Below are positions 5,896 through 64,000 of a stretch of DNA of 64,000 bases, one piece after another. The stretch is from Acidobacteriota bacterium. Lineage in GTDB: Bacteria > Acidobacteriota > Blastocatellia > RBC074. Every line of letters starts with the position of its first letter. The stretch's first letter is position 1. The notes beneath the pieces are model-generated. The model saw nothing but the letters and a program-made list of their open reading frames with translations. It did not search any database and was not told the DNA's origin. The stretch is taken from NCBI GenBank assembly GCA_016789605.1, contig JAEUQO010000211.1:1798-65797 (forward strand), read 5' to 3'. Both the position numbers and the translations under genes were made by a program.

Positions 5896-6210
5896 AGTGA
5901 AGTCTCCGTGTCTGATGGCGTTCCGCCGCAGACGGCGGAACGTTGGGTGTTAATGGAGAGTCAACCGTTTTCCGATAACCGGCAAACGATTACACTGAAA
6001 TTGAATCGGAACGAATTATGCGTATCGAATTTTGAAGGAGTGCGATCTTTTCCCAGCGTTGACTGGCGCAGGTGAGTCAATTGGTGAATATATTTCGGGA
6101 TTTGCGCCAGCGCCGCGCATTATTGGCTGGCATTAAAAAACTGTCAAGTTGTCGGCCCGAACTAATTCAAGATAATCATCCGACCGATCATCGGTTGGAA
6201 AACACCTTTC

Positions 6211-6990
6211 ATGAAATCCAAACCCCAGAAAGAACGCCTCGACAAATTACTGGTCCAACGCGGACTGGCCGAAACGCGCGCCAAAGCACAATCGTTGATC
6301 CTGGCGGGTCAGGTCTTCAGCCAGCAACAACGCCTGGAAAAAGCCGGACAAATGGTGCCCGATGACATTCCGTTATCGCTGAAAGAAACCATGCCGTTTG
6401 TCAGTCGCGGCGGATTGAAACTCGCGGCGGCGCTTGAGCATCTTTCCCTTGAAGTCACAGGCAAACGTTGTTTGGATGTGGGCGCTTCGACAGGAGGATT
6501 TACAGATTGTCTGTTGCAACGCGGCGCAACGCGCGTCGTGGCGCTGGATGTCGGACACGGACAACTGGATTGGAAGCTGCGGCAGGATGCGCGCGTCGAA
6601 GTGCGCGAAAACGTCAATGCCCGTTATTTGACGCCCGCGGATTTTACCGAGCGCTTTGAGCTGGTCGTCGCCGACGTTTCGTTTATTTCGCTGAGCAAAA
6701 TTCTGCCGGTGATTCCGCCGTTGTGCGTGCCCGGCGCGCTTGTCGTGACGCTGATCAAACCGCAATTTGAAGTCGGACGCGCCGAAGTCGGCAAAGGCGG
6801 CATTGTGCGCGATGAAGCCGCGCAGCAGCGAGTCGTCAGCGAAATCATTGCCTGTGCGGCGTCTTTGGGAATGGAATTGTTAGGCGTATTGGATTCGCCG
6901 ATTTTGGGTGCGGATGGCAATCGCGAATTTCTCGCCGGGTTTGTCGTCAAAACGACGGACGCGTCGGCGATTACTTCTTCCGCAAATTGA
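6211..6990 (+). CDS. tlyA: TlyA family rRNA (cytidine-2'-O)-methyltransferase
   Basis: S4-like N-terminus (RLDKLLVQRGLAETRAKAQSLILAGQV), then VSRGGLKL and the FtsJ-type SAM motif LDVGASTGGFTDCLLQRGA..VVALDVGHGQL. Confidence 0.9.
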   Translation: MKSKPQKERLDKLLVQRGLAETRAKAQSLILAGQVFSQQQRLEKAGQMVPDDIPLSLKETMPFVSRGGLKLAAALEHLSLEVTGKRCLDVGASTGGFTDCLLQRGATRVVALDVGHGQLDWKLRQDARVEVRENVNARYLTPADFTERFELVVADVSFISLSKILPVIPPLCVPGALVVTLIKPQFEVGRAEVGKGGIVRDEAAQQRVVSEIIACAASLGMELLGVLDSPILGADGNREFLAGFVVKTTDASAITSSAN

Positions 6991-7966
6991 GCTGGTTGGC
7001 ATATTGCACGCGCGGCAGGCTTTCTCCGGCGCTGTCTTGCGCCGTCACGCGCAATTTCAGTGTGCGACGTTTGACGTTGGGCGGTTCGATACCCAAAAAA
7101 TAGGTGCTCTGAATGCGCTCGAAAATCGCCTGGGTCGCGGTCGGAATTTCATTTTGTGTGCGGCAAAACATGGCAATGCCACCCGACGCAGCGGCAATGC
7201 GCTCCAACCCACTTTGATAGGCCAGGTTCAGCGTATCACTGCGATAAGACAAATGCAGTATGAACAGCGGAATCGTGTAGCCCGCCAATTCTTCTCCCAG
7301 GCGGCTCATGCGTTCTTGCACGGCACGATCTGAAAACCGGCGGCTTAGGTCGCCAGAATCGCTGGCATTGATGACCGGGTTTAGATAATCCGCCCGATAA
7401 TTTCCGATGCCGCTATCGGTCACATAAAAGATACAGACGCGCACACCGGCTTTTTGCATCATCCCGGTCGCCAGTTTCGACACTGGTTCGAGCGTATCCA
7501 GCAAACCTGCCTTGCCATTCACTTTTACCGTTTGAATTTTTTCGCGGATCAACGCGCGTTGCGGTGTGGGTTCCTGCAAGACGGCCAACCCGTCTTGCGC
7601 CTGCATCACGGCCAGCCAATGGTTTTCGGCCAAACCATCCAGCGCACTGTCGAGCGCGGTGCGCGCCTGTTCGACCACCGCCAAATCCGCCACGGTATCA
7701 AACACCAGCAAAATGATGGTGGGCGTGCGCGGCCCCTGAAAACTTTTGAGCGGGACTTCTTTTTCTTCGACAAACACCTTGAACGAATCGCGCTTGCCGT
7801 CACGCCAAAACTGCTCATCCGCGTCGGTCACTGCCACGGGCAATTTGAGCAAGGTTTTGGGCGCTGCCGGTTCGGCTTTCTCTTTCTGCCCCTGACCTGA
7901 AACCACCCACACGGGCCATAAACTGAGGCTCAGCCACAAAGCGATAAAAATGCGTTTCGTTTGCAT
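6971..7966 (-). CDS. secreted VWFA-related (acidobacterial-type) domain protein
   Basis: Signal peptide MQTKRIFIALWLSLSLWPVWVVSG. The body resembles the VWFA-related Acidobacterial domain family as I recall it (..IILLVFDTVADL.., ..CIFYVTDSG..). It starts 9 bp after the stop of the upstream barrel gene. Family assignment is from memory and was not searched. Confidence 0.6.
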   Translation of the reverse strand: MQTKRIFIALWLSLSLWPVWVVSGQGQKEKAEPAAPKTLLKLPVAVTDADEQFWRDGKRDSFKVFVEEKEVPLKSFQGPRTPTIILLVFDTVADLAVVEQARTALDSALDGLAENHWLAVMQAQDGLAVLQEPTPQRALIREKIQTVKVNGKAGLLDTLEPVSKLATGMMQKAGVRVCIFYVTDSGIGNYRADYLNPVINASDSGDLSRRFSDRAVQERMSRLGEELAGYTIPLFILHLSYRSDTLNLAYQSGLERIAAASGGIAMFCRTQNEIPTATQAIFERIQSTYFLGIEPPNVKRRTLKLRVTAQDSAGESLPRVQYANQLNLRKK

Positions 7967-7975
7967 GTTGAGAAC

Positions 7976-10927
7976 TCAAAACAAGATGCGCACACCCATT
8001 TGCATGACGCGGCCGCCGGTCGAACCGATGATCTTGCCTGCGTTCAGATTCGGGCTGGAAGCCGGGCCAATGCGTACGTCCGGCATATTCCAATTGGCGT
8101 GATTGGGAAAGTTGAACGCTTCGCTGACCAGTTCCAGCGACGCGTCGGCGCTCAACTCAACCCGTTTGGTCAACGACAAATGATGAAATTGCGCTCCCGG
8201 CGCACGCAACGAAGGATGCGTGCGCGAAACATTGCCCAGACTGAAATCGTCAGGTTGGGCAAACGCGTCTGGATTGAACCATTGTTGCGCGCTGGGGTCT
8301 TCGACGTGCGGATTCACGCCCGGCACTTCGTTGACGCGCAAATGCGTCACCAATCCGCCCGTACGGTTAAACAACGGACGCAAGGTCAGCGGTAGCCCCC
8401 CGCGCCAGGTTGTCAATCCGCTCAGGCTCCAACCACCGAGCACGTTGCCAGTTACGGTGTCGTCGTTGAAAAAGCGTTTGCCTTTGCCAAACGGAAATTC
8501 ATAGGTGTAACTGACCTGCACCGAATGCGTGATGTCGTCATCGGAAATAGACCATTCTTCGGCCAGGTTGTAAGGGTCTTGCGCTGCGCCAGACGAATAA
8601 TTGTCCATCAGCTTGGCCAGCCGGTAACTGACGCGGCCAAACAATCCGCCTTTCATCCGTTGATCCAGTGTCAGGCTGAGCGCGTGGCCTTCTAAATCGC
8701 CGCCCGGATATACCCCGCCCAAATCCAGATTGCGGTATTGCGGATACGGGCGCAGCGAATTGCGAAACGCATCGTCATAAAGCTGATCGCGATACACCAG
8801 GTTTTCGAGCGGCACGGCGTTCAGGCGCACAAACCCATCCACGAATTGATGCGCGCCGGTCCAGCCGGTGTACCGCGCATCCAGCGACAACGAACGCGGC
8901 AATTCGCGTTGCAAGCTGAGCGTCCATTGCTGGTTGATCGGCAACAAACCCGACGGCTCGAAATAATCGGCGTCTATGCCGTTGGCTGCGGTCGCGTCCA
9001 GAAACGGCGGCTGGCGAAAGTTGTTTGGCAATCCATTGCGCAATTGAAACGCTGCTTGCAACTGTTCATTGGGTGAAATAAACACCGGCGTGGCATTGAA
9101 TCCATTGGTGCCGAAATGCCGCCCGGCCAGCGGCAATTCGCTATAGTTCAGACTGTAATTCGCACGTACGATGGTGTTGCGGTTATTCCACGGATTGAAC
9201 GCCATGCCCAAGGTTGGCTCCAACCGCGTTGTCACCGGTTGCAATGCGCGTCCCGCGCCATCCTGCCCAGCAAAAATCAGCGCCCCCGGTTTGCCGTTGG
9301 CAGGATTAAGGCGAGACAACGACACTGTCGCCTGGCGGTCATATTTTTCCACGCGCGGCGTACTGATTTCCGCGCTCAAGCTGAAACTGGCCGTCAGCCC
9401 CGGACGCACACGCCATTCGTCACTGACATTCACGTCAACGAAATTGTTGCGGTAATACGACGGGTGCAACACCAGCCCTTCTTCTGCGCGCGTCACCTGG
9501 CCGAGCAACAACTGGGCAAACGAATTTCCCGTGTTATTGATGCCCGGCAAGCTGGTCAACCCGGCAGAGAAGTAGAACCAGCCTGCCGGATATGACGGGC
9601 TGTATGAATTGACCTGCCGATGTTGGCCTAAAAACGTGAAACGCAACGTATGTGAGTTGTGCGTCACGGTCACGCCAGATGTAACGTTGTAAACAGCGCT
9701 GCGATCACTAAAAACGGCTGTCGCCGGTCCCAACGACAGGTAATTGCTGCTAAAGGTAAAGCGCGGAAAGTAGCCAGAAAAAACTCCGCTCAGCCCCAAC
9801 TGTTGCGGATAATTCTGCGTTTCGTCCGTTGTCAGTGATTCAGTCACGCTGTATGACGACGCCACGCGCAACGTCCAGACAATGCGGGGCGAAACGGTGT
9901 AGGTGTCTTGCACCGACAGGCTGCCATTTTCAAAGTTATAACTGGGATTGCCGGAATTGGCCGGTCCCGGAAAATATTGCGGCGACTTGCGCGCGCCTCG
10001 CGAAAGATTGAAATTGGCGCTGAACTGTTGTTTTTCCGTCAGACGATGGTCCACTTTTGCAATCACACCGTTGGCACGATTTTCAAACGGCGAATTGATC
10101 CAATAGTTGTTTTGCAAAAACGGACCGACTGAGGTGTTAGGTTTGGGATACAACGCCAACAGCGCGCGTGCAACCGGGTCCAGGCGATTAGCCGGAATGA
10201 TGTTGCCCGGAAACGGATCGCGCAAATATTGCAGATTGTCTCGCGACACGGGTTTCGCCGGATTGTAATTCGGATTTGGTCTGGTCGTCGCCGGGTCGAA
10301 AATTTGCACCGGATTTCCGGCAGTATCCACCAGATCGGAAAAATCGCCGCTGCGTTGGCGTTCGGTGGGCAAAGTAAAGAGCGCGCTTTGTGCAATGCGC
10401 TCGCGCGTGCCTTCAAACGAAGTCGTAAAAAATGTGCGCCCGCGTCCGTCATAAAGCCAGGGCAAATGAACCGGCCCGCTCACGCTGAAACCATACTGAT
10501 TGCGCCGCAACAACGATTTGTTTCCGCCGCGTTGCCGAACTTCGTGCGGTACGGCGTCAAACAAATCATTGCGCAAGTTTTCGTACAAGCGCCCGGTGTA
10601 ACGATTTTGTTTGCCGACCGCTTTCAACCGCCGCGCATCTTTACCGGCGGCATCCCCGGTGACGCTGAACTGGCCCATTTGCACGCGAAATTCGTCGAGC
10701 GCTTTTTGAAATTCGCTGGGACGTTTGGCAGACGCAGGCGTCGCGCTGGGATTAGGAGTCGGTGTTGGCGCAGGTTGTGGCGCACGTTGCCCCTGGACTG
10801 CCTGCCCCTGGACTGTCTGCCCCTGGACTGTCTGCAAGCTCAAGCCTGAAAGTCCGAGCAACAGGCACACACCAATGTGCACTGGCACGATAATGCTGCG
10901 AAGGAAAAAGTATTTTCTCGGTTTCAT
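7976..10927 (-). CDS. TonB-dependent-receptor-like outer-membrane beta-barrel protein lacking CarboxypepD_reg and plug regions
   Basis: ORF 7976..10999. I place the start at the internal ATG (10925-10927), giving MKPRKYFFLRSIIVPVHIGVCLLLGLSGLS. The protein aligns by eye to the barrel part of the 2188..5895 protein (RRNQYGFSVSGPVHLPW vs YRYNYQGFNLSGPVWLPK; DPFPGNIIPANRLDP vs QPFPNNVIPTNRINP). It ends MQMGVRILF. Confidence 0.7.
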   Translation of the reverse strand: MKPRKYFFLRSIIVPVHIGVCLLLGLSGLSLQTVQGQTVQGQAVQGQRAPQPAPTPTPNPSATPASAKRPSEFQKALDEFRVQMGQFSVTGDAAGKDARRLKAVGKQNRYTGRLYENLRNDLFDAVPHEVRQRGGNKSLLRRNQYGFSVSGPVHLPWLYDGRGRTFFTTSFEGTRERIAQSALFTLPTERQRSGDFSDLVDTAGNPVQIFDPATTRPNPNYNPAKPVSRDNLQYLRDPFPGNIIPANRLDPVARALLALYPKPNTSVGPFLQNNYWINSPFENRANGVIAKVDHRLTEKQQFSANFNLSRGARKSPQYFPGPANSGNPSYNFENGSLSVQDTYTVSPRIVWTLRVASSYSVTESLTTDETQNYPQQLGLSGVFSGYFPRFTFSSNYLSLGPATAVFSDRSAVYNVTSGVTVTHNSHTLRFTFLGQHRQVNSYSPSYPAGWFYFSAGLTSLPGINNTGNSFAQLLLGQVTRAEEGLVLHPSYYRNNFVDVNVSDEWRVRPGLTASFSLSAEISTPRVEKYDRQATVSLSRLNPANGKPGALIFAGQDGAGRALQPVTTRLEPTLGMAFNPWNNRNTIVRANYSLNYSELPLAGRHFGTNGFNATPVFISPNEQLQAAFQLRNGLPNNFRQPPFLDATAANGIDADYFEPSGLLPINQQWTLSLQRELPRSLSLDARYTGWTGAHQFVDGFVRLNAVPLENLVYRDQLYDDAFRNSLRPYPQYRNLDLGGVYPGGDLEGHALSLTLDQRMKGGLFGRVSYRLAKLMDNYSSGAAQDPYNLAEEWSISDDDITHSVQVSYTYEFPFGKGKRFFNDDTVTGNVLGGWSLSGLTTWRGGLPLTLRPLFNRTGGLVTHLRVNEVPGVNPHVEDPSAQQWFNPDAFAQPDDFSLGNVSRTHPSLRAPGAQFHHLSLTKRVELSADASLELVSEAFNFPNHANWNMPDVRIGPASSPNLNAGKIIGSTGGRVMQMGVRILF
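10789..10833. repeat. 15-bp x3 tandem repeat inside the barrel gene
   Basis: gcccctggactgcct / gcccctggactgtct / gcccctggactgtct. On the coding strand this encodes QTVQG-QTVQG-QAVQG immediately after the signal peptide. Confidence 0.9.
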
Positions 10928-24249: not shown

Positions 24250-26859
24250 CTATTGCGCCGCGCCAACCAGCACAAACGGCGCCCAATAATACGGATGCCG
24301 CCAGGCAGGCTGTGCGCCGCGCAAAAGTTCCAATTGCGCCTGGCGTAACGCATCGTCTTTGCTCAAACCTTGTTGCAAGTTCTTATAAAACGATCTCATC
24401 AACGAAGCTGTGGCGATGTCGTTGACGTTCCACAAACTGACGACCACGCTGTCAGCGCCGGCGTACAAGAACGCGCGGGTCAGTCCGATGATGCCTTCGC
24501 CGTGCAACATGCGGCCCAGCCCTGTGCCACATGCCGAAAGCGTGACCAGCGCTGCATTCAGTTTCAGGCGCATGACTTCGGCCATCTGTAACGCGCCGTC
24601 TTCTGCTTTTGCCCCGCTGGCAATCGTCGTCGGAGCCGACAACATAATGGCCGAGCGCGCCGGATACTCTTCATCCACCAAAGCGTGCGCCGCAAAATGC
24701 AGATAACGATACTGGCCGAGCGGCGCGGCTTTCACGGCGGCTTCCTGCGCCTCTTCACCAAGCAACACCTGACGTTCTGTGGCGGGAAATAACGCGGCGA
24801 TCCCGTTCACTTCCGTACGTGTATAGGGCAACTGGCGAAAATCAAAGCCGCGTTCGTCAGTGTGGGCTGCCTGGGCAGACTCGCTTCTGGCATAGACGGG
24901 ATCGCCAAATGCGATGAGACCTTTTGCTGGCGCCGCGTTTGGTCTGAGCGTTTGCAGCGCCACCAACGCCGAAGCCGACGGCGCATAGCGAAGCGCAAAT
25001 CGTTCGAGCAAAAACGCCGTTGCGCCGCGCGCGCCATTTCCCGCCAGGGTTTCAAACGGCAAATACGACAACACGCCATCAGGCACGAGGATGAGTTTGC
25101 GCGCGCCGCTCAAATGCGCTTCCAACGGCTGAAAAAGTTTTTCGTATAACGGTTTGCCCTGGCTTTTCAGCTTGGCCATTGCTTGTGCCGCAGTGGCCGA
25201 ATTGACCTTGGTCGAAATCTCCGCGCGAAACGCCGCCACGAGCGGTTCTAATTCCTTGCGCGCGGGCAATTTCACCGTCGCGAGTTTGCCCGCAGACACA
25301 ACCCAGGCAAACGAGCGCTCTTCGCCGAGGACAAATTCAAGCAAGGCTGTCTCTTTGGGCAAGGATTCCGCCGCACGTTTGAAATCAATCGGCGGCGGCG
25401 CTTTGACGCTGGCATAGCGCGGATCGGCGCGGCGCAGTGCCAACCGATACAGTTGCAACGCGTTTTCGGCGTCGGCCAATTGGCGGTTGAGCTGCGCTTC
25501 TTTTTCCGGCGCAAGTTCCGGTTGCCACAACTCGCGCTGCACTGCGGAAATTTGTTCAAAAAGCTGGTCTTCGCGTTCCTGCTGCGCGGGTGTCAATTCC
25601 AGCTCTGATTCCAACCCGGCTTCGGCCAGAACATCCAAAAAGGCGCGGGCGTGATACGACTCTGCGACGGCAAACGCTTCCTCGGTCAGCGATTGCTCAA
25701 CCAACAATGAAATCGCCCCGGCAAAAACCTGTTGGCGCGATGCGACAATGCCCGCGCGCGAGATTTCGGTTGGAATCGAAAGCGCGCGGGCGTCTTCCAG
25801 TGCCGACAGCCCGGCGCGATAGCTAAGCAAAGCCACCGCCGGTTGCCCCAACGCACGTTGCGCTTCGGCGAGCGTTGCATGCACGCGGGCTTCGAGATGT
25901 TTGTTTCCGCCCGTGCGCTGTAACACGGTGAGCGCCTGTGTCGCGGTGTTGCGCGCGCTTCCCGCCTGACCTGCTTTCAATTGTGTCGCGGCATATTCGC
26001 CCAGCACAAACGCTTCGGGTTGCGGCAATTTCATCGGGCGAATGATGCGCAAGGCCTGTTCAAACAGCTCTGCCGCCTTAGGGAGCTGGTTGAGCGCCGT
26101 CCGCGTCATGGCCAGGTGATAGAGCAATTCGGCGTACATAAATGCTCGTGGCGCAGCGGGAGCAAGCAACAACGCCCGCTCTCCGTACGCCAGAGCTTTG
26201 TCAAAATTGCCGCGCGCGTTTTCAGCCGCAACCAACCGACGCAACACAAAAAACTCTGTTTCGCGCCGGGGCAGACTTTGCGCCAGCGTTTGCGCTTGCT
26301 GCAAATATTGTGTGGCTTGCGCAAAATCGCCGGTTTCGGCAAACACGCTGCCGACTTGCGCCAAAGCGCGCGCTTCGCCGCTTTTGTCTTTGCGTTGACG
26401 AAACAACCGCAACGTTTGCTCAAAACAGAACAACGCGTCGGCATAACGTCCCGATTGCATCAACAATCCACCGGCACGGCCCAGCGCGTTGGTTTGCAAC
26501 TGGCTGATGCCCGCTTCGTCTGCGTTGCTCGAAGCAAGTTTGAACAGCCGAATGGCTTCATTCATTCGCCCGGCATGAAAGGCTGCCAGCGCGATCAGAT
26601 TGATGGCACGCGCCTGGCGCGCCTTGTCGTGACTTTCCTGGCTTAAGGTAAGCGCCTGTTTGGCAATCTGGTAGGCCTGCAAAAAGTTTTTGTTCTGTAA
26701 TTGCCGAGCGGCAGTTTTGAGCAACCGTTCAACGGCGGCAGGCTGATCTGTGTCCAAGGAGTTTGCCTTGGCGCGCCGACGGTTTTGCATCTGGGCAGAA
26801 TGCGGCAACGATAGGCAAAGCACGGCCAGCCCACAAAGCAAAAACACGATTCGCTTCAT
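24250..26859 (-). CDS. secreted TPR repeat + CHAT domain (caspase-like) protease
   Basis: Signal peptide MKRIVFLLCGLAVLCLSLPHSAQ and long TPR region. The C-terminal CHAT domain has an intact dyad context: YLHFAAHA (His) and TLSACGTG (Cys777, codon complement of 24529-24531), then SLWNVND. Confidence 0.9.
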   Translation of the reverse strand: MKRIVFLLCGLAVLCLSLPHSAQMQNRRRAKANSLDTDQPAAVERLLKTAARQLQNKNFLQAYQIAKQALTLSQESHDKARQARAINLIALAAFHAGRMNEAIRLFKLASSNADEAGISQLQTNALGRAGGLLMQSGRYADALFCFEQTLRLFRQRKDKSGEARALAQVGSVFAETGDFAQATQYLQQAQTLAQSLPRRETEFFVLRRLVAAENARGNFDKALAYGERALLLAPAAPRAFMYAELLYHLAMTRTALNQLPKAAELFEQALRIIRPMKLPQPEAFVLGEYAATQLKAGQAGSARNTATQALTVLQRTGGNKHLEARVHATLAEAQRALGQPAVALLSYRAGLSALEDARALSIPTEISRAGIVASRQQVFAGAISLLVEQSLTEEAFAVAESYHARAFLDVLAEAGLESELELTPAQQEREDQLFEQISAVQRELWQPELAPEKEAQLNRQLADAENALQLYRLALRRADPRYASVKAPPPIDFKRAAESLPKETALLEFVLGEERSFAWVVSAGKLATVKLPARKELEPLVAAFRAEISTKVNSATAAQAMAKLKSQGKPLYEKLFQPLEAHLSGARKLILVPDGVLSYLPFETLAGNGARGATAFLLERFALRYAPSASALVALQTLRPNAAPAKGLIAFGDPVYARSESAQAAHTDERGFDFRQLPYTRTEVNGIAALFPATERQVLLGEEAQEAAVKAAPLGQYRYLHFAAHALVDEEYPARSAIMLSAPTTIASGAKAEDGALQMAEVMRLKLNAALVTLSACGTGLGRMLHGEGIIGLTRAFLYAGADSVVVSLWNVNDIATASLMRSFYKNLQQGLSKDDALRQAQLELLRGAQPAWRHPYYWAPFVLVGAAQ

Positions 26860-26874
26860 CGTCGCGACTCCTGG

Positions 26875-27657
26875 TTACGGTATTTGCACTTGCAATCGGT
26901 ATTCGCCAACCGGTTCCGGTTGGCCATCACGCAGGCCGTAACACTTCACCACATATTTGCCCGGCTGTAAAAGCTTGGCGGGAATGCTGGCTGAAACTGC
27001 GCCGTTGGCGTTGGCTTTGCCGCTGGTAACGGTCGTCACCAGACGTTTGGCGCTGTCAAAAAGCTGAAAGCGAAAGCTGGAAAATGGGCTGTTTGGTTCT
27101 ACGTCCAGACGCAAGATCGCGCTGGCAGCATTGGCCGGAAGTCGCAATACCGTTCCCGCATCCTTCGCGCCGCGCTCAGAATCCAGAAACACGACGGGAG
27201 ATTTGCCAAGGGCAGCGATATCCGCCGGTGGCGGCGTCTGGGTTTTCGCCAAATTCGGTTGCGTCACTTGCGGACTTTCAGCAACCACAGGCGTACTTTC
27301 CGCCTGAGGCGTCACCGTGGGCGACGGCTTGCCCGCAATTTCTTCGGGCGAAACCGCAGGCTGTTTCAGCCACAACCAGGCAATCCCCAACGCCAGGACC
27401 ACTGCCAAGGCGGTGGCCAACACGAGCGCAGGTTTGAACCAATTCGCCCACCAGGGTTCTGCCGCAACCGCTGCCAACAAATTCTGACGCGCCGCCTGAC
27501 GCACCCCGGCCACAAAACGCGCCGTCATCTGCACCTGTGCAAAACACTCTGCGCAATCGAAGTAATGTTCCTGAAACGCACGCCGCTCGTCGGGCGAGAG
27601 TTGATGCCGCACGTAACGCTCGATGATATCGCCTTGTTGTACTTCCTGATGCGTCAT
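26875..27657 (-). CDS. zf-HC2 anti-sigma factor, single TM, extracytoplasmic beta-rich domain
   Basis: ORF 26875..27696, trimmed to ATG 27657. MTHQEVQQGDIIERYVRHQLSPDERRAFQEHYFDCAECF carries the H-x3-C-x2-C motif. TM segment ALVLATALAVVLALGIAWLWL. The stop lies 15 bp before the CHAT gene start. Confidence 0.75.
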   Translation of the reverse strand: MTHQEVQQGDIIERYVRHQLSPDERRAFQEHYFDCAECFAQVQMTARFVAGVRQAARQNLLAAVAAEPWWANWFKPALVLATALAVVLALGIAWLWLKQPAVSPEEIAGKPSPTVTPQAESTPVVAESPQVTQPNLAKTQTPPPADIAALGKSPVVFLDSERGAKDAGTVLRLPANAASAILRLDVEPNSPFSSFRFQLFDSAKRLVTTVTSGKANANGAVSASIPAKLLQPGKYVVKCYGLRDGQPEPVGEYRLQVQIP

Positions 27658-27703
27658 AGTTATTGATAAGTGCAGCGAACCGCCCGTTTGTATCAATCCT
27701 GTT

Positions 27704-28267
27704 TCAGCGTCGGGTCATTTTTTTGTAAAGCTCGCGAAAACTTTGCAGCGCACGGGATTTGATCAGCCGCACGCGCTCTTGGTTGATGCCGAGTTTGCGC
27801 GCAATTTCTTCTTTGGTCAGCTCTTCGTAATAGTACATGCGCAAAAATTGTTGCTCGCGCGGTTTGAGCTGGCGGGCAACTTCTTGCAACGCGCGGCTGG
27901 TTTCGGCGTCCAGAAATGCCTGTTCCAGCGAATCGCCCCCGGCGACATCATATTCGTAATCTTCCAGCGAATCGGCGCGGTATTTTTGCCGTATGTGCTC
28001 CCGAATGACATTCAACGTAATGCCGACAATGAATGACGGCAGCGAATCGGCGGTGCGCAATTTGCCCTGGCGCAAAGCCTGAATCACACGCAGAAAGGTT
28101 TCTGCCCGAATGTCTTCTGCATCTTCTTTGGAATGTGTTTCGCTGAGAGCGGTGAAATACACACGCGCCGAGAATTTGTCATACAGCGCGGCCTCAGCAT
28201 CGGCCTCGCCTTGCCGAATGCGGGCGACCAATTCCTGATTTGCGGGAGGTTGCGCGCTGGAATGCAT
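27704..28267 (-). CDS. ECF-type RNA polymerase sigma-70 family factor
   Basis: ORF 27704..28357, trimmed to ATG 28267. Region 2 (DAEDIRAETFLRVIQAL) and region 4 HTH (LTKEEIARKLGINQERVRLIKSRAL). Confidence 0.85.
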   Translation of the reverse strand: MHSSAQPPANQELVARIRQGEADAEAALYDKFSARVYFTALSETHSKEDAEDIRAETFLRVIQALRQGKLRTADSLPSFIVGITLNVIREHIRQKYRADSLEDYEYDVAGGDSLEQAFLDAETSRALQEVARQLKPREQQFLRMYYYEELTKEEIARKLGINQERVRLIKSRALQSFRELYKKMTRR

Positions 28268-28555
28268 ACGGGCCGGGATTCTACGCAAAGTTCTCTGTGG
28301 GCGATAGAGAGTCCACACATTTCGCGGCCCCCTCGCCAATCCCAAACGGCTCCGCACAAAAAATCAAAAAAAGAAAAAAGATTGATACACCTGACGACCT
28401 GGCTGCACTACTTGCCGAACAAACGAGCTGGCGCGATGGAGGCAGCCAGCAAAGGCCAGTTTGCTCGGCATGAGAACGCTGAGGATCGCAGGCTGTGCCG
28501 AACAACACGTAGAAAATCACCGGATCGCATCCGGACCAAAAAGGAGAATACAACG

Positions 28556-57344: not shown

Positions 57345-59936
57345 TCAATTGCTAATCGTGCCTTGTTGTACGACGCCGCCTTTTTGAATAACGGCCACTT
57401 CAATGCTGAAGTAGAAAGGGCATATCTCGCTAATGCGCGTTTCGTGACCGCGTAACATTCCCTGAATGGCTCGTTTGGGGATGAAGAGCACGCGGGTGAT
57501 ATCTGAACCAAATGGTATTTCTTCAATCGGTTTCATCGCCTGTGAAACGATGTTCTGGCGATGTGTTTCCTTCAAACTTGGGAAAAGCCGATCGGCGGCG
57601 GGCAGCAGTAAATTGGTATACTTGTCCAGAAATAGTTGGAAACCTGTCGGTTCGGCATCACCAACAGGAACTGCCGACGCCAACGACGCTGCGGTGCCAA
57701 AGGCATTCAGGATTTTAAAGACGATGGCTCTGACGCTGCGCTCATCCCGTCGATCCACAGTATTGACCATCATCTCGAAGGTATATGGCCGATACGTAAC
57801 CACACCGGTACAGAACGGTTCGTTGCTATCTCGGCTTTGTGTTAACAGACCTCGACTCGGCAATTGCGTTGACTGAAACGTATTGGCAATGTGGTAGAAG
57901 TCATCGCGCCTCATCAAATGCCATTTGCTGTCATTCACAGGCAACCCTGATTCGCTTAATTCGGCCAGCAACTGATACAACGTCGAGCGCGCCTCTGTAC
58001 CGCGCATGATTTCTAATTTGATTGCGCTCAATTCGTCCTGTGCCTTATTAGCGGCCACGCGCGAAAGGCGCGCCGCACGCTCGGCAACATTGATCTTATC
58101 TTTCACATCCTGAGTTTGATCAGTTTTGACTTCGTAAAGCAAATTCTGCAACTCATGTTCGTCTGCCAAGGCTTTCTTTTCGGCTTCACGCAACTGGGCA
58201 ATCGCCTCGTTGATCCTCTTCTGGTATTCGTCGAATTTGGCTAAATCGCTTTTGCTCTGAGCAGTGGCGATCCCCTTCACTTTTTCCTTTCGTAACTTCG
58301 CCTGATCGTTCGCGGCAAGTGGATCCCAAACAAACGGAAGCTCGCTTTTCAACTTAGGGTTGAATTTCTTCTCTAACCCGACAGCGATCTCAACCGAAGC
58401 GCTATATGCCAGGATCGAAGAGCCGATATATTGCTTACCGTCATCCTCTTTCAGGTTATTAAAAAGCCGCACGGTCAACACATAGTTCTCGTCACTTGTC
58501 ACCCTGCCATACAGATCGCTTGCCATCCGCTCATCCATTACGTTGAGTTTGACTTTGAGGGGGGCAAACTTACTCACAGCGGCCAGGCGAACAGGGAGTT
58601 TGGCCAGAATCGGCTGATTACTAAGGTAGGCAGTAACTTTGACAACAATTTGAGGAGGACGAAGATGACGAACTGTCGTCCCATCGGTATTACGGGATTC
58701 GATTTCGGTGGGTAATGGATCCCGCCAGTAAATCGTGAGTTGATTTCCCTCTGCGGCCAGCGTGACCCATTTTTCATCTTGCTCTTTATTTTCCAACTCG
58801 AACTGTACGATGACGTCTGGTTGAGGGACGCCTTGCTTGTTCCGCACCTGAGCAGTCGTCGTGATGTTTCCGTTGGGCAAGATGGGAGCCACGATTGGCG
58901 GCGAAAAAGTGATGTAACCTTCGCGTCGAAGAATGGTAAACGGCAGAGTTTTACTCACTGGTGTGAGGCCCCCTTGCACTACTGTAAAAGTAAGCTTGGC
59001 TGGTTTAGTTGTCGGCGGGCTTTCTTCTCTAGGCCAATGCAATGCCTCGACTTTCACGACGTCCCCTATAAGTTCGGCGTGTAGAAGTGGCTGATCATTA
59101 TCGAGTTTTACGTCTCGTAAATCCTTTATCAATGGAAGCAAGTTTGCCCCCTTCTTCAATAGGATTTTGAAGTTTGGTAATTTATCGCCTTCAATAAGTT
59201 GTGGTGTGGCAAGGTCGACAAAGGCAATTTCGTCAGGTTTGGCCAGTACCCGAATTTTGAAAGCAGCCACTGGCATGGTTTGCAGCGTATCAAACTTCAG
59301 ATCAATTTGTGCCTCGCTATCGCTCTGTACCCCTGAAGCTATGAGCTTGTCACCGCTGCTTCGAACGATATTCGGATGACGGCTCTCGGCTTTCCCCGCC
59401 ACCGCAGCCCCATTAATCATTGTGCTGACGTCAATCTTCCGCTCCTCTCCTTCACTAAGATAAACAGTATCTTCCGGGCGCAACGTTTTCGTTTCGCCCA
59501 ATTTACTCAAAAGCACTGTCAATTCCAGGTTCGGTTTGATTTTGATGGCAATCTTATCGCTTTCAAATTGTCTCCCGTCTGTGTGCGTGTACTTGAGTTT
59601 TATCTCTTTTCGTAGCTCGCTCGCTCGATACTTAAAACCTGTATTGTTTTTCAAAACCCAGGCCTGATCACTCAGCACAACTTCCAATAAATCGTCCGTT
59701 AGGCTCAGACCGGTTGTTATCGGTGTAGCTACATCTCCCACCAAGAACTTCGGCGCCAACTTCTCGCCTTTGTTGAATTCCAACGTAATTTCTTTGGGCA
59801 GATCAGTTAGCTTGCCGCTGGATTGTGCTCGCCCCCAGGTCTTTTCTGGGGTTACGCTTATGGCAAGTAAAAAAGCCAGTAAGAACAAACTGCTGCAAAG
59901 TCTTGAGAAAAAGAACGGGAACCGGGAAGTCTTCAT
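57345..59936 (-). CDS. orphan 863-aa secreted protein (beta-rich N-terminal two thirds, central coiled coil, unknown C-terminal domain)
   Basis: ORF 57345..59993, trimmed to ATG 59936 with AAAGGAG upstream. Signal MKTSRFPFFFSRLCSSLFLLAFLLAISV. Coiled-coil stretch KFDEYQKRINEAIAQLREAEKKALADEHELQNLLYEV. AT-richer codon usage than the rest of the window. No family recognised. Confidence 0.6.
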   Translation of the reverse strand: MKTSRFPFFFSRLCSSLFLLAFLLAISVTPEKTWGRAQSSGKLTDLPKEITLEFNKGEKLAPKFLVGDVATPITTGLSLTDDLLEVVLSDQAWVLKNNTGFKYRASELRKEIKLKYTHTDGRQFESDKIAIKIKPNLELTVLLSKLGETKTLRPEDTVYLSEGEERKIDVSTMINGAAVAGKAESRHPNIVRSSGDKLIASGVQSDSEAQIDLKFDTLQTMPVAAFKIRVLAKPDEIAFVDLATPQLIEGDKLPNFKILLKKGANLLPLIKDLRDVKLDNDQPLLHAELIGDVVKVEALHWPREESPPTTKPAKLTFTVVQGGLTPVSKTLPFTILRREGYITFSPPIVAPILPNGNITTTAQVRNKQGVPQPDVIVQFELENKEQDEKWVTLAAEGNQLTIYWRDPLPTEIESRNTDGTTVRHLRPPQIVVKVTAYLSNQPILAKLPVRLAAVSKFAPLKVKLNVMDERMASDLYGRVTSDENYVLTVRLFNNLKEDDGKQYIGSSILAYSASVEIAVGLEKKFNPKLKSELPFVWDPLAANDQAKLRKEKVKGIATAQSKSDLAKFDEYQKRINEAIAQLREAEKKALADEHELQNLLYEVKTDQTQDVKDKINVAERAARLSRVAANKAQDELSAIKLEIMRGTEARSTLYQLLAELSESGLPVNDSKWHLMRRDDFYHIANTFQSTQLPSRGLLTQSRDSNEPFCTGVVTYRPYTFEMMVNTVDRRDERSVRAIVFKILNAFGTAASLASAVPVGDAEPTGFQLFLDKYTNLLLPAADRLFPSLKETHRQNIVSQAMKPIEEIPFGSDITRVLFIPKRAIQGMLRGHETRISEICPFYFSIEVAVIQKGGVVQQGTISN

Positions 59937-60098
59937 TTCTGCTTCTCCTTTGGGATGGCCAGCCTGCCGTATCAAGTTTCCTACTCTGCGCAAGACCTAT
60001 TTCCTGCTAGAAGTATGTGCTCACCTTATGTCTTCTCTCACGAGGAAAAATTTCAAGCACTAGCTCAATTTTTATTATCACAGTTAAAAGCCCCTCCA

Positions 60099-60126
60099 TT
60101 GCGTCTGAAAGACCAATGTTTATAAT
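60099..60126 (+). promoter_or_regulatory. sigma-70-like promoter candidate (TTGCGT-N16-TATAAT)
   Basis: TTGCGT at 60099-60104 and a consensus TATAAT at 60121-60126, in the divergent intergenic region upstream of the sigma-like gene. Confidence 0.35.
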
Positions 60127-60246
60127 GGCGGAGGGCGCTGCTTGTTACCGATAACACAAGCTGACAGCTGAGACTTTTCACTAACAGGTGTCCGAATAGT
60201 GCCCCCCATTCTCCCAAACCCATTCACAGGAAGTGCTTCACCGTAT

Positions 60247-60861
60247 ATGAAAGGCTGGGAATTGACGGCGGAGGGCTTCGATCTTTTCCTCAATTGGCTG
60301 TCTGCTGATCGGGAACAGGCTGGAAGGAAGTTCGAAGCGCTCAGGCGAAGGTTGGTCACATTCTTTGATGCGCGCGGTTGCCTGGACGCGGAAGGGTTGG
60401 CAGATAAGACCATAGATCGGCTGGTCCGCAAATTACCCACCCTCACACCTGAATTTCTTGCCTCGTTTACCGAAACGACCACCGCTGCTAAAGATTCACA
60501 TGCCGCTTACTGCTACCGGTTCGCGCATTACATCCACCTGGAATACTTGCAAAACATACGAACTGAAGAAGGGCTGCTGACGGAAATTGCCCCGCTGGCC
60601 GTAGTAGAGGCGGATGAGCAAGATGCCGAAGAATCTCGCTTTAATTGTCTGGATCATTGCCTGGAAACCCTACCTCGCGAGAAGCGGGAACTGCTGCTGC
60701 TTTATTTCGAAAAGGAAAAGCAGGCTAAGGTGGAGCACCATAAACGGCTGGCTGACCATTTCGGTCTTTCGCTCAATGCCTTGCGCCTGCAAATTCACCG
60801 CCTGACCCACAAACTCTACGATTGCATCACCGCCTGCCAAACGCAGGAAACAAACGCCTGA
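60247..60861 (+). CDS. divergent ECF-like sigma-70 family protein
   Basis: ORF 60199..60861 (GTG). I prefer ATG 60247, but this is uncertain. FDLFLNWLSADREQAGRKFEALRRRLVTFFDARGCLDAEGLADKTIDRLVRKL resembles the region-2-like N-terminus of a sigma-70-like family I recall from Acidobacteria and Planctomycetes. Region 4: LPREKRELLLLYF...LADHFGLSLNALRLQIHRLTHKL. Confidence 0.65.
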   Translation: MKGWELTAEGFDLFLNWLSADREQAGRKFEALRRRLVTFFDARGCLDAEGLADKTIDRLVRKLPTLTPEFLASFTETTTAAKDSHAAYCYRFAHYIHLEYLQNIRTEEGLLTEIAPLAVVEADEQDAEESRFNCLDHCLETLPREKRELLLLYFEKEKQAKVEHHKRLADHFGLSLNALRLQIHRLTHKLYDCITACQTQETNA

Positions 60862-60924
60862 AATTTTTTGCGCGCGGAGCCGACATAAAGCGCCAGTGCA
60901 AAAACGTCTTTCAGCGAGGACGTG

Positions 60925-63900
60925 ATGATTTCACACACAGAAGAAGAAAAACTGATTCGACGTTACCTGCTGGGGCAAACGACGCCAGAGGAACGACAAA
61001 AAGTGGAAGAAGGTCTGTTTAGCGAAGGGATATCTATCAATAGCCTGCATTTTGGCGAAGAGGAATTGGATTACGCCGAACTCTTTCGCCTGCTTGAACA
61101 TGAACTGATTGCCGATTACGCACGCGGAGCACTGACGGCAGAAGAGCAATCGCTCTTTGAAAAACATTTTTTGTGTACGCCCAAACGGCGAGAAAAATTG
61201 TCGTTGGCCCAATCAGTCGTGTCTTATGCCGAAACAAAGAAAAAGGCTGCCGATCCGATTCTGACGCCAACGCCTGCCAGAATTGAAGAGCGTTTGTCTG
61301 ATCGAACTGGTGGTCGCCCTCTCTCCGTTCCGCCTTCTTGGGAAAATCCTCGTTGGTGGCGAACACTTTTTTTGCCCGGTTGGAAACTTACTGCGTATGC
61401 TGCCCTAATTGCGGGTGTCATCCTTGGTGTCTTGTATCTACAAACGAAAGAATCATCTGTAAGCCACGCCCTGGCGGCGCTTAACCAAGCGTATCAACGC
61501 GAGCGTCCGCTAGAAACTCGGGTCTCTGGGGTCAACTATGCCCCTGCTGCCCGCACCCGTAGCCTTTCCACAAATGGGGCGGAACAGAGCGGTGTGGCCA
61601 AAGTTGATTATGTTGCGCGCGATCGCGCGGCAAGATTACTTTTGGACGCAGTTGCGGAAAGACCTGATTCTGTGTCGCATCACGCGCTAGGCCGTTTTTA
61701 CCTGCTTAATAAAGAGCTTGATAAGGCGTCAGACCAACTTGAAAGTGCGCTGAAACTTGCGCCGAATGACGCGTTGACGCATAACGATCTGGCACTGGTA
61801 TTGCTCGAAAAAGGGCTTTTAGCGGGCCAAAAAGACCCGCCAGCAAATAGTCTAGAGCTATTCGCGGCAAGTCTGGAGCAGCTTAATACCGCACTGAAGC
61901 TTGCCCCCAAATTACCTGAAGCACTGTTTAACCGCGCCATTGTTTATCAACATCTTTCTTTGCCGCAAAATGCGATATCCGATTGGCAAACTTATCTTTC
62001 TGTTGATGGCACGTCTCCCTGGGCGAAAGAGGCCCAAACCAGACTGAAGGAATTGCAAGAACAGCAACAACGCCGCGCACAAACACGTAGTGAGTTGTTC
62101 CCTGAATTTCTGCAAGCGGATAAAGCGGCCAATGAGGAGCTTGCCTGGCAGCTTTTTGCCAGAGCCAGATCGCGAACAGGCAATCTGATCACCGAACAAT
62201 TACTGGATGAATGGTTCGACAAGGCAAAGGACAAAAGTAAATTAAGCGAACTAGATTCTTTACCGATTCTGGAATCGGCCGGCGAGCGCGAGCGTCGTCG
62301 CGTAGATGATCATTTCACAGCCGACCTCGTTCATTTCTATAAAACATTCGCAAGGGCTCAGCCAAACACGCGGTTTGAAAAATTGACGACTGCCCGACAC
62401 CTTGTGCGACAGGCTCGTGCTGAATTCAATGCGAGTAGATTTGCGTCAGCAGCCCGGCTATTCGGGCAAGCCGCCGCTAGCTATCAGGCCTTGGGAAATC
62501 AGCCTGAAATGATGTTGGCGCAATGCTGGTCAGCACATAGCCTATTACGCTTACCCGACCTCAAGCAGAGCCTTTTACTTTACCAGTCCTTGCTCCCTGC
62601 TTGCTCACAATATCGCTATCGCTGGCTGCAGTCACAAATCCTTAATGCCATTGCCGACAATCAAAGCTCGCGTAGCCAATATTCCCAGGCTTTGGACTAC
62701 GCTGATCAATCGCGCGCCATCGCCCTCAAGATAGAAGATACCGCAGGAGCACTCAGGAATTTGCAATTTGGGTTGTCTATGAAATTGCAGTTTGGCAATT
62801 ATCGCGATTCATTGACATACTCTGCACAAGCTTTTGAGTTGGCTCAAAATACTATTGGCGAACCACGCCAGCTATGGCATCTCTATTTCGAAAACGCACT
62901 GAATTTCCTACAGCTCGATCTCCCAACTGCAGCTCTCAGCTTCCAACACGAAGCCCTGCGCCTTGCTCTGGCAAGTAACTGGCCGCTGATTATCTGCCGG
63001 TCGTATATGCGGCTAGGAATGTTGTATGACCGGCTTGAGGACTACCAACAATCCTTGAAGTACCTGCAGCTTGCCTTGGCCGAAGGGCAAAAAATCCCTC
63101 TGACGGAAGGGCAGATAGACCTCACATCCCACACTTGGTTGCAATTAGGCCTCGTGCACCTTCGGCACAATGCTCCCCAACAGGCACTCTCTTGCTTTGA
63201 ACAGGCAAGCAGTCAATTTACACAAATTCATATCCCTTACGAACTGTATTGTGCGCGCAAAGGCAGATCACAGGCATTGTTACAGTTGGGCCGCGACCAA
63301 GAAGCCGGGCAAGAGCTGGCACAAGCCTTGCAGCTATACGAATTGCATCGCCAGACCATTGTGGAAGAAAGTCATCGCGTCAGCTTCTTCGACCTTGAGC
63401 AAGATATTTACGAACTGGCCACCGAATTTGCCTTTACCAAATCACACGATCAACGCCAAGCGTTTTCTTACGCGGAAGCTTCTCGTGCCCGTTCACTACT
63501 GGATTTGCAGCAAGGCGAAATACAGTTGATCCAACACGAAGGCCAGCCTGATATACGCCTTGCGACGTTTGCTCAGCCTTTATCATTTTCCGATATCCAA
63601 CAACGCTTACCGGCGGAAACTCAAATTGTACTTTACGCTACGCTCAAAAACAGGCTTCTCATCTGGCTTGTTTCCAACACTTCTTTTCAAGCTGTGGAAA
63701 TGCCGATCTCTCAGGCAGAACTTCGGCAGAAAGTAGCGCTTTTCCGGCAAAGGATTGCAGTAGCCTCCGAGAGAATAAGCCCCTCTGACGACGCACTGGG
63801 CAAGGAACTGTACAACCTGTTGATAACCCCCATCGCGGCTGCGCTTAATCCCCAAAAGCTGGTATGCATTGTGCCGGACGATTGCTTGCACGAACTCTCT

Positions 63901-64000
63901 TTTGCAGCACTCGTTTCTCCATCCCAGAACTGCTATTTAATTGACCAGTATGTGCTGACGTGGGCACCGAGCGCGTCCTTGTTCGTCTTGCGTGGGGGCC
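60925..64000 (+). CDS. fusion protein: anti-sigma-like N-terminus + one TM helix + TPR region + start of CHAT domain (3' end off window)
   Basis: Absent from the ORF track because there is no stop before the window end. My translation from ATG 60925 (GAGGA 4 nt upstream) is open to 63999. It contains a degenerate zf-HC2-type motif (LIADYARGALTAEEQSLFEKHFLCTPKRREKL), a TM helix WKLTAYAALIAGVILGVLYL (61381-61440) and TPR-like helices. The last roughly 130 aa align by eye with the pre-CHAT/CHAT start of the 24250..26859 protein (KLVCIVPDDCLHELSFAALV vs KLILVPDGVLSYLPFETLA). Confidence 0.7.
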   Translation, partial: MISHTEEEKLIRRYLLGQTTPEERQKVEEGLFSEGISINSLHFGEEELDYAELFRLLEHELIADYARGALTAEEQSLFEKHFLCTPKRREKLSLAQSVVSYAETKKKAADPILTPTPARIEERLSDRTGGRPLSVPPSWENPRWWRTLFLPGWKLTAYAALIAGVILGVLYLQTKESSVSHALAALNQAYQRERPLETRVSGVNYAPAARTRSLSTNGAEQSGVAKVDYVARDRAARLLLDAVAERPDSVSHHALGRFYLLNKELDKASDQLESALKLAPNDALTHNDLALVLLEKGLLAGQKDPPANSLELFAASLEQLNTALKLAPKLPEALFNRAIVYQHLSLPQNAISDWQTYLSVDGTSPWAKEAQTRLKELQEQQQRRAQTRSELFPEFLQADKAANEELAWQLFARARSRTGNLITEQLLDEWFDKAKDKSKLSELDSLPILESAGERERRRVDDHFTADLVHFYKTFARAQPNTRFEKLTTARHLVRQARAEFNASRFASAARLFGQAAASYQALGNQPEMMLAQCWSAHSLLRLPDLKQSLLLYQSLLPACSQYRYRWLQSQILNAIADNQSSRSQYSQALDYADQSRAIALKIEDTAGALRNLQFGLSMKLQFGNYRDSLTYSAQAFELAQNTIGEPRQLWHLYFENALNFLQLDLPTAALSFQHEALRLALASNWPLIICRSYMRLGMLYDRLEDYQQSLKYLQLALAEGQKIPLTEGQIDLTSHTWLQLGLVHLRHNAPQQALSCFEQASSQFTQIHIPYELYCARKGRSQALLQLGRDQEAGQELAQALQLYELHRQTIVEESHRVSFFDLEQDIYELATEFAFTKSHDQRQAFSYAEASRARSLLDLQQGEIQLIQHEGQPDIRLATFAQPLSFSDIQQRLPAETQIVLYATLKNRLLIWLVSNTSFQAVEMPISQAELRQKVALFRQRIAVASERISPSDDALGKELYNLLITPIAAALNPQKLVCIVPDDCLHELSFAALVSPSQNCYLIDQYVLTWAPSASLFVLRGG

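Follow-up and report, generated by a model that had tools for sequence, protein, structure and literature searches.

In anti-sigma systems such as RseA/DegS/RseP, RsiW and RslA, an N-terminal class I-like anti-sigma domain is joined by one transmembrane helix to a bulky extracytoplasmic domain that has to be removed, and the site-1 protease is a separate enzyme. To our knowledge, no anti-sigma factor with a TPR-CHAT body other than DdvA has yet been characterised. In Myxococcus xanthus, the anti-sigma factor DdvA spans the membrane and carries a TPR-CHAT region of ~900 residues in the periplasm, and its partner DdvS belongs to the extracytoplasmic function (ECF) sigma factors (PMC6061681, 2018). 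Cryo-electron microscopy (8ROT, 8RW5) and nuclear magnetic resonance (8RLZ) structures show a dimer of scaffold, TPR and CHAT with the His-Cys dyad in a resting state; the N-terminal CHCC zinc three-helix domain binds both sigma2 and sigma4 of DdvS, and DdvA lacking TPR-CHAT undergoes RseP-dependent degradation (PMC11506125, 2024). The authors of that work propose that CHAT is a built-in site-1 protease and cleaves, in trans, the linker of the partner chain, a step they explicitly call unproven; using the zinc-binding motif as a search criterion, they report DdvA-like proteins only in Myxococcota and one Comamonas (PMC11506125). Here we describe a locus at the end of a 64,000-nucleotide stretch of DNA from an Acidobacteriota bacterium (assembly GCA_016789605.1, contig JAEUQO010000211.1, positions 1,798 to 65,797; hereafter the window), in which a predicted divergent ECF-type sigma gene is followed by a single long gene for a putative anti-sigma factor with its own TPR and CHAT regions. 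We consider it very probable that the two form a sigma/anti-sigma pair of the DdvA kind, which brings this design to a large family from soil Acidobacteriota, where the anti-sigma domain and the sigma family differ.

Gene order, domain order and family distribution

The sigma gene (60247..60861; all features of this locus lie on the plus strand) encodes 204 aa, and an identical product is called on three independent public contigs. After a gap of 63 nt, an ATG at 60925, 4 nt downstream of a Shine-Dalgarno-like GAGGA (60916..60920, read from the sequence), opens a frame that continues without a stop through 1025 codons to position 64000, where the window end truncates the gene. This frame is absent from the open reading frame (ORF) list of the window because the list excludes ORFs that run off the source; the first-pass annotation had nonetheless drawn attention to a sigma-like gene with an ORF of more than 1024 codons 63 bp behind it, and was right on both counts. 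A public contig (L001), which matches the window at 99.66% identity across 9177 nt with 31 mismatches and no indels, supplies the complete downstream gene at its positions 6102-9839. The product, P0001, has 1245 aa; for the parts beyond the window, statements on the full-length protein rest on L001 and P0001, the latter 99% identical to the window protein.

In order, the protein comprises a tandem anti-sigma domain of zinc-less type, a single transmembrane helix, a helical scaffold with TPR, and CHAT. The scaffold and TPR superhelix (about aa 230-865; 61612..63519), predicted to be periplasmic, is all-helical in the structural model; where the first-pass annotation had seen about 650 aa of TPR-like helices, we find ~630 aa of helical repeats that match Pfam TPR families at E 1e-14 to 1e-8. 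Within it, aa 306-384 align with DdvA residues 209-287, a segment comprising the scaffold together with the first part of the 'midrib' helix alpha12. The beta-strands of the CHAT protease fold begin in the model at about aa 867, leaving its N-terminal part in the window (aa 867-1025; 63523..64000). Pfam CHAT matches P0001 at aa 957-1244 (E 1.7e-65, profile positions 2-288 of 289), so the Pfam domain starts at window position 63793 and its first ~70 residues lie inside the window; the window-encoded part alone gives no Pfam CHAT match. The beginning of this domain had been recognised by its alignment with a protease encoded elsewhere in the window (24250..26859), and the two proteins indeed share 31% identity (BLASTP, E 7e-48). 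The protease assignment depended on a catalytic dyad encoded past position 64000, and L001/P0001 has one: His1101 (HIAAHA) and Cys1154 (LSAC), both beyond the window end, are invariant in 38 homologues of 30-50% identity, as are the surrounding HxAxH and LSAC motifs. Approximately 45 full-length homologues, roughly 1200 aa each, carry CHAT.

DdvA is both the best fold match and the best non-generic sequence match to this protein in the PDB. A single-sequence search with P0001 places DdvA (8ROT_B) first at E 9e-8 with the catalytic His and Cys motifs aligned, and the family profile reaches DdvA at E 2e-16, ranked behind generic TPR proteins, in an alignment that includes the scaffold next to the membrane. 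Furthermore, a Foldseek search with the model of P0003, a 49% identical homologue (predicted local distance difference test score, pLDDT, 88.9; predicted TM-score 0.80), returns the two DdvA entries first (8RW5 and 8ROT, E 3e-20, TM-scores 0.71 and 0.69) over ~1080 columns at 16% identity, followed by Csx29 (TM-score 0.46) and then separases. The locus shares with DdvS/DdvA the order of a sigma gene and then an anti-sigma gene, and the protein repeats, in the same sequence, a cytoplasmic anti-sigma domain, one transmembrane helix, scaffold, TPR superhelix and a CHAT domain with a His-Cys dyad.

There are also differences. Sequence identity to DdvA is ~16%, and the acidobacterial protein is ~250 aa longer (1245 versus 991); in place of the CHCC zinc three-helix bundle of DdvA it has a zinc-less anti-sigma domain made of two zf-HC2-like motifs in tandem, and its sigma partner comes from a divergent family whose sigma2 region Pfam does not recognise. 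The Pfam CHAT model fits this protein along its full length, whereas for DdvA the absence of three CHAT helices is reported, with an active site that the dimer partner completes; the P0003 model contains helices between the early CHAT strands, and the two observations suggest that the CHAT domain may be complete here. A conserved juxtamembrane motif has no counterpart detected in DdvA, a gene for an orphan protein of ~300 aa almost always lies downstream, the gene lists of four loci (L001, L004, L006, L007) contain no CBASS (cyclic-oligonucleotide-based anti-phage signalling system) or CRISPR genes within ~8 kb, and the hosts are Acidobacteriota of the Blastocatellia/Pyrinomonadaceae. The first-pass annotation had proposed a self-contained caspase-like sigma-release switch, with sigma, anti-sigma, transmembrane, TPR and CHAT elements in one locus and the last four in one polypeptide. 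That anatomy is correct, but the strong claim to novelty fails, since both the architecture, a sigma factor with an anti-sigma-transmembrane-TPR-CHAT protein, and the release model were published for DdvS/DdvA in 2018 and 2024 (PMC6061681, PMC11506125); the first-pass annotation had itself named an earlier description of the architecture as a ground for refutation. What is new is the duplicated anti-sigma domain of non-zinc type, the divergent sigma family, the larger body and the conserved ~300-aa partner, together with natural split, domain-swapped and sigma-less relatives and a setting outside defence islands.

Other described systems are more remote. In Craspase, Cas7-11 acts with Csx29, a TPR-CHAT protease whose cleavage substrate, Csx30, is in turn bound to a sigma factor of the ECF type (PMC10028731; PDB 8EEY, 8EEX), so that here too a TPR-CHAT protease is functionally tied to the control of an ECF-type sigma factor, and NCBIfam Csx29 weakly matches the fused protein (E 1e-7). 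This parallel had been drawn correctly in the first-pass annotation, yet it is the more distant of the two, with a TM-score of 0.46 for Csx29 against about 0.7 for DdvA. Moreover, Craspase is cytoplasmic, RNA-guided and CRISPR-associated, with protease and sigma-binding protein on separate chains, whereas the acidobacterial protein has a transmembrane helix with its N-terminus inside, a CHAT domain predicted to be periplasmic, and no cas genes in the surrounding gene lists. Relative to the RseA, RsiW and RslA systems, which it resembles in its class I-like N-terminus, single membrane helix and bulky extracytoplasmic domain, it differs in having the protease domain fused into the anti-sigma factor and the anti-sigma domain duplicated. 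We also considered ECF54, in which an ECF sigma factor is genomically associated with a CHAT-domain protein; the group is actinobacterial, with CHAT, subtilase and carboxypeptidase neighbours and no anti-sigma factor (PMC8999054; PMC7826278), whereas here an acidobacterial anti-sigma factor is itself fused to CHAT, and we rejected ECF54 as the relevant group.

The strongest evidence for a functional pair comes from synteny. A genome scan with an alignment of 10 sequences recovered at least 552 confirmed relatives in species-representative genomes. The best 80 come nearly all from Pyrinomonadaceae, Blastocatellia or unclassified Acidobacteriota metagenome-assembled genomes (MAGs); most cover residues 1-1244, and several genomes have two copies. 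This large Blastocatellia/Pyrinomonadaceae family lies outside the published distribution of DdvA and is new here, and its breadth contradicts the narrow range reported. Upstream sequence sufficed to judge gene order at 72 of the 80 loci: a sigma gene stands directly upstream on the same strand at 61 of the 62 loci whose protein has the tandem N-terminal domain and at none of the 10 whose protein lacks it (Fisher p = 1.2e-10, computed on 60/62 versus 0/10; locus L051 brings the count to 61/62). The earlier suggestion that the sigma/anti-sigma/CHAT association is functional rather than accidental therefore holds, the more so as split and fused forms occur within one family.

Three kinds of natural variant accompany the standard form. 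At four loci (L035, L056, L072, L074) the protein is split into two genes downstream of the sigma gene. The first encodes an anti-sigma protein of 320-390 aa corresponding to family-profile positions 1-340 (anti-sigma domain, transmembrane helix and first scaffold/TPR part), ending approximately at the 'midrib' helix by alignment with DdvA; the second covers positions 104-1203 and has its own transmembrane helix and its own scaffold copy ahead of TPR and CHAT, so that the juxtamembrane and scaffold region is duplicated across the two genes. At two further loci (L029, 3214-7543; L031, 2951-7276) the same transmembrane-TPR-CHAT body carries an N-terminal domain with H-x3-C-x2-C (HCIRCAEC) and the sigma gene upstream is of another family (Sigma70_r2, E 8e-5); anti-sigma domain and sigma partner appear to have been exchanged together. 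Finally, at seven of the 10 sigma-less loci (L053, L057, L073, L083, L084, L085, L087) the proteins start at the membrane anchor. Such split, swapped and sigma-less forms amount to natural 'experiments' and offer tractable constructs for the study of trans-cleavage.

The N-terminal domain and its probable sigma partner

A helix-turn-helix motif occurs twice within residues 1-110, as YLLG...E...E and as DYA.G.L...E...FE..F; both copies are conserved across the family, and the region most likely represents a class I anti-sigma domain in duplicated, zinc-less form. Motif 1 (aa 6-32, IRRYLLG...VEEGLF; 60940..61020) is a pair of helices modelled by AlphaFold at residues 6-15 and 21-32 (pLDDT >90), with Y14, L15 and L16 nearly invariant; in two shorter relatives it exceeds the Pfam zf-HC2 gathering score (P0170, 24.9 bits; P0183, 34.5 bits). 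Motif 2 (aa 50-109; 61072..61251) forms a three-helix core without zinc ligands. It matches Pfam zf-HC2 weakly (E 0.0066, aa 59-81) and the NCBIfam models NF052375 'antisigma' (E 8.7e-7) and PRK13920 (E 1.9e-5), and the family hidden Markov model (HMM) aligns motif 2 and the transmembrane helix with the zinc-binding anti-sigma (ZAS) protein encoded in the window at 26875..27696 on the minus strand (E 1.7e-9). This alignment pairs 'HYFDCAEC' of the ZAS protein with 'NFLSTPERR' of the fused protein, and the zinc ligands would therefore have been lost from the latter. Across 38 homologues the family consensus at the site reads 'FExxFLxTPxRR'; because the His of 'EKHFLC' is not conserved and no CxxC is present, we regard the domain as zinc-less. 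The two anti-sigma motifs first annotated are thus both present and conserved, but the degenerate H-x3-C-x2-C proposed for the second is not supported, and a zinc-binding ZAS reading of 'HFLC' was rejected on the same lack of conservation.

The AlphaFold model of the first 175 aa of the window protein (pLDDT 81) has five confident helices, a disordered linker and a transmembrane helix at 152-174. The linker (aa 110-151; 61252..61377), predicted to be cytoplasmic, has pLDDT <60 and varies in length and sequence across the family. At the top of the Foldseek matches to this N-terminal model stand the anti-sigma factors RslA, RskA and ChrR, RslA coming first, with probability up to 0.95 and target TM-scores of 0.6-0.68. 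In an exhaustive search of 1.84 billion representative proteins, the N-terminal domain was found in 1444 clusters, and in all 150 matches listed it starts within the first ~50 residues. Its carriers are CHAT proteins of ~1200 aa and many proteins of 250-400 aa; among the latter, some score above the zf-HC2 threshold of Pfam in motif 1 or in motif 2. The individual sequence and structure scores for the anti-sigma domain are weak, and it is accordingly the co-occurrence with the sigma gene that carries the case. Between the two motifs, an insert of ~11-15 aa (aa 34-48; 61024-61068) is found in the window protein, its two closest relatives and the sub-clade P0004-P0006; it is missing in other homologues and is modelled with lower confidence.

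The product of 60247..60861 is, on profile comparisons, a divergent ECF-type sigma factor. It matches NCBIfam TIGR02989 (E 4.7e-13, 49.4 bits; cut-off 124.6) and the sigma70-ECF model TIGR02937 (E 7.5e-6, 25.7 bits; cut-off 42.9) as well as Pfam Sigma70_r4_2 (E 2e-4, 21.3 bits, under the gathering cut-off of 25.7), and it has no Pfam Sigma70_r2 match. A PDB search with the single sequence returned only spurious DNA-ligase matches, and a family profile was needed. The profile built from 37 homologues finds RpoE (2Q1Z, E 7e-6, positions 45-179) and Mycobacterium tuberculosis SigE (E 2e-5), spanning sigma2 to sigma4. The same profile detects the window's canonical ECF sigma factor at 27704..28357 on the minus strand (E 2.5e-10). 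The first-pass annotation had called the two sigma factors of the window non-homologous; by this comparison they are distant homologues. Given the synteny above, the product of 60247..60861 is in all likelihood the cognate partner of the anti-sigma factor encoded downstream. Two of its cysteines, C138 ('CLDHCLE') and C193 ('CITAC'), are invariant across the 37 homologues and could serve the sigma factor itself as a redox or metal site.

Topology, sigma release and competing explanations

The single transmembrane helix (aa 152-174; 61378..61446) was placed at 61381-61440 (aa 153-172) in the first-pass annotation, in good agreement with a Kyte-Doolittle peak at aa 154-173 (1.81), the only hydrophobic segment of the protein, and with the AlphaFold helix. 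The hydrophobic stretch is kept in all 38 homologues, 33 of which reach a Kyte-Doolittle value of at least 1.6. Across these homologues the upstream flank carries a net charge of +2.2 and the downstream flank is about neutral (-0.1), which by the positive-inside rule places the N-terminus inside; the ~1070 aa that follow the helix are accordingly predicted to be periplasmic. Just beyond the membrane, also on the predicted periplasmic side, lies the conserved motif ALNxAYxxxRPxExR(I/V)(S/T)GxxYAP (aa 183-207; 61471..61545), in which L186, R194 and R199 are invariant and A189 and Y190 nearly so; in the P0003 model it is non-helical yet confident, and we consider it a candidate cleavage or docking segment. 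Predicted to lie across the membrane from the sigma-binding domain, CHAT cannot cut the sigma-binding part directly; its only possible role in release would be that of a 'site-1' protease in the periplasm, acting ahead of an intramembrane protease.

By analogy with DdvA, sigma release would probably proceed as follows. At rest, the ~110-aa N-terminal domain would keep the sigma factor on the inner side of the membrane, with the periplasmic TPR-CHAT body serving as a sensor for a signal that is probably a protein. On activation, proteolysis would remove the bulky periplasmic part, most likely through CHAT itself. In the role of a 'site-1' protease, CHAT would attack a partner chain in trans, in its juxtamembrane or scaffold region; cleavage of the transmembrane helix by an RseP-type intramembrane protease would follow, after which the cytoplasmic fragment would be degraded and the sigma factor set free. 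We favour CHAT as the site-1 protease because the dyad is invariant, because each half of the split form has a scaffold and because the CHAT protein of the three-gene module described below is secreted. Even so, we hold the specific proposal that CHAT cleaves its own anti-sigma factor only tentatively, at somewhat short of an even chance, while the broader statement, a pair of the DdvS/DdvA kind with CHAT-driven release, seems to us on balance probable.

Several observations weigh against this account. The zinc ligands that define the DdvA anti-sigma domain (CHCC or H-x3-C-x2-C) are absent from the family; no Foldseek match to the small N-terminal domain reaches a significant E-value; and all sigma matches in Pfam and NCBIfam fall under the curated family cut-offs. 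Upstream of 61 sigma genes, k-mer enrichment gave only TTGACT- and TATAAT-like words and no promoter motif of ECF type, and a promoter consensus scan of window positions 59800-61000 stayed at chance level. The full-length model is that of P0003, 49% identical, rather than of the window protein. For the juxtamembrane motif, a profile search of the PDB gave no match, DdvA included, and no DdvA counterpart is detectable; the motif is moreover retained in sigma-less relatives and is thus not specific to sigma release. In DdvA itself, CHAT self-cleavage is only proposed, and mutants of the dyad had no phenotype (PMC11506125).

This last point also favours the main competing explanation, in which the locus encodes the same sigma/anti-sigma pair but CHAT processes another periplasmic or exported substrate. 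Release of the sigma factor would then fall to a conventional site-1 protease or to a ligand-induced conformational change in the TPR region, and the fusion would serve only to couple transcription to the state of the protease module. The seven relatives that have the same transmembrane-TPR-CHAT body, with neither anti-sigma domain nor sigma gene, fit well here, since they indicate that this body has a sigma-independent function; so does the ~300-aa gene that follows the CHAT gene at 69 of the 80 loci, sigma-less ones included. On the other hand, the anti-sigma half of the split forms retains a copy of the scaffold, as trans pairing with the CHAT half would require, and most of the ~300-aa partners have no signal peptide or transmembrane segment and would make poor periplasmic substrates. 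We consider this alternative rather unlikely, though the most serious of those weighed.

The variants also invite an evolutionary reading that we offer as speculation, perhaps more doubtful than not: in Blastocatellia/Pyrinomonadaceae, a membrane-anchored TPR-CHAT protein with its ~300-aa partner may be an ancestral envelope module that was wired to transcription several times through interchangeable anti-sigma domains, with the halves of the split forms pairing through their duplicated scaffolds. The interchangeable domains would be the zinc-less tandem with the divergent sigma factor, or an H-x3-C-x2-C type with another sigma factor. If this were true, trans cleavage of the partner chain by CHAT would have natural evidence in the paired split halves, and caspase-like CHAT domains would make up a class of site-1 proteases, general and self-contained, in regulated intramembrane proteolysis.

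Since a CBASS/CRISPR island is under the control of DdvA (PMC11506125), the closest structural relative, the locus might alternatively be an anti-phage alarm like DdvA/DdvS, with the periplasmic TPR-CHAT body sensing a phage-derived protein and turning on defence genes. The CHAT region has a weak PADLOC match to BovA (E 2.4e-7) that points the same way. However, PADLOC gives no matches for the sigma, upstream or downstream genes, the ~8-kb surroundings of the four loci listed above hold neither defence nor cas genes, only a subset of the myxobacterial DdvA-like pairs adjoin defence systems (PMC11506125), and the presence of two copies in several genomes fits general envelope signalling better. 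A defence role therefore strikes us as improbable.

Less likely still is that CHAT is a pseudo-protease, a non-catalytic sensor or scaffold in an otherwise ordinary TPR-type anti-sigma factor. The DdvA structure, whose dyad is in resting geometry with an incomplete active site (PMC11506125), lends this some plausibility; against it stand a Pfam CHAT model matched end to end and, at 30-50% identity, the invariance of the dyad and of its flanking motifs in the 38 homologues. The chance that the long ORF is an assembly or frameshift artefact fusing separate anti-sigma and CHAT genes, a worry raised by the first-pass annotation and nourished by the two ORFs of the four split loci and the broken frames of four others (L042, L052, L075, L088), is negligible, given that the identical continuous ORF is found on the independent assemblies L001 and L002, that most of the best 80 loci have a single full-length ORF (8 broken or split, 5 truncated by contig ends), and that true split forms are built differently, with a transmembrane helix and scaffold copy of their own in each half. 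At the four MAG loci with broken frames, the CHAT gene is spread over 2-5 overlapping or adjacent ORFs with no region duplicated, and these are either frameshifted pseudogenes or assembly errors.

The three-gene module and neighbouring genes

A second triad of the same functions, arranged as three genes on the minus strand, lies in the window, as the first-pass annotation had recognised. It consists of the canonical ECF sigma factor (27704..28357; Pfam Sigma70_r2 E 1e-8, Sigma70_r4 E 6e-14), the zinc-type (HYFDCAEC) transmembrane anti-sigma factor (26875..27696; Pfam zf-HC2 E 3.9e-5, above the gathering score; transmembrane segment aa 84-115) and an exported TPR-CHAT protease with a signal peptide (24250..26859; Pfam CHAT E 1.2e-80; hydrophobic leader aa 1-23). 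In both modules, CHAT is predicted to lie outside the cytoplasm, beside the extracytoplasmic part of an anti-sigma factor that spans the membrane, and the presence of fused and three-gene versions in one window allows their direct comparison within one organism.

Upstream of the fused locus, a divergently transcribed gene (57345..59936, minus strand) has a product of 863 aa that begins with a signal peptide and matches nothing in Pfam, NCBIfam or PADLOC. The first-pass annotation had included this gene in the prospective regulon, for which synteny gives no support: the equivalent position in related loci is taken by other genes, such as those for a He_PIG-domain protein and a DUF4831 lipoprotein, clustering of the nearest upstream ORFs from 58 loci gives mostly singletons, and pairwise BLASTP of the upstream genes of four loci gave one weak domain match only. 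The gene is therefore not a conserved part of the module, and we rejected it as a conserved target.

Downstream, just past the window end, the source strain has the orphan ~300-aa gene (L001 9868-10842, approximately window position 64691 onward, plus strand). Its relatives, among loci L009-L088, follow the CHAT gene on the same strand not only in the standard loci but also in the domain-swapped and sigma-less variants, which direct attention to this so far unstudied partner. Searches of Pfam, NCBIfam, PADLOC and PDB profiles gave no match to the family, and a word-indexed search returned only the protein itself. In the family alignment, G42, H66 and C315 (numbered after P0119, the first row of the alignment) are invariant.

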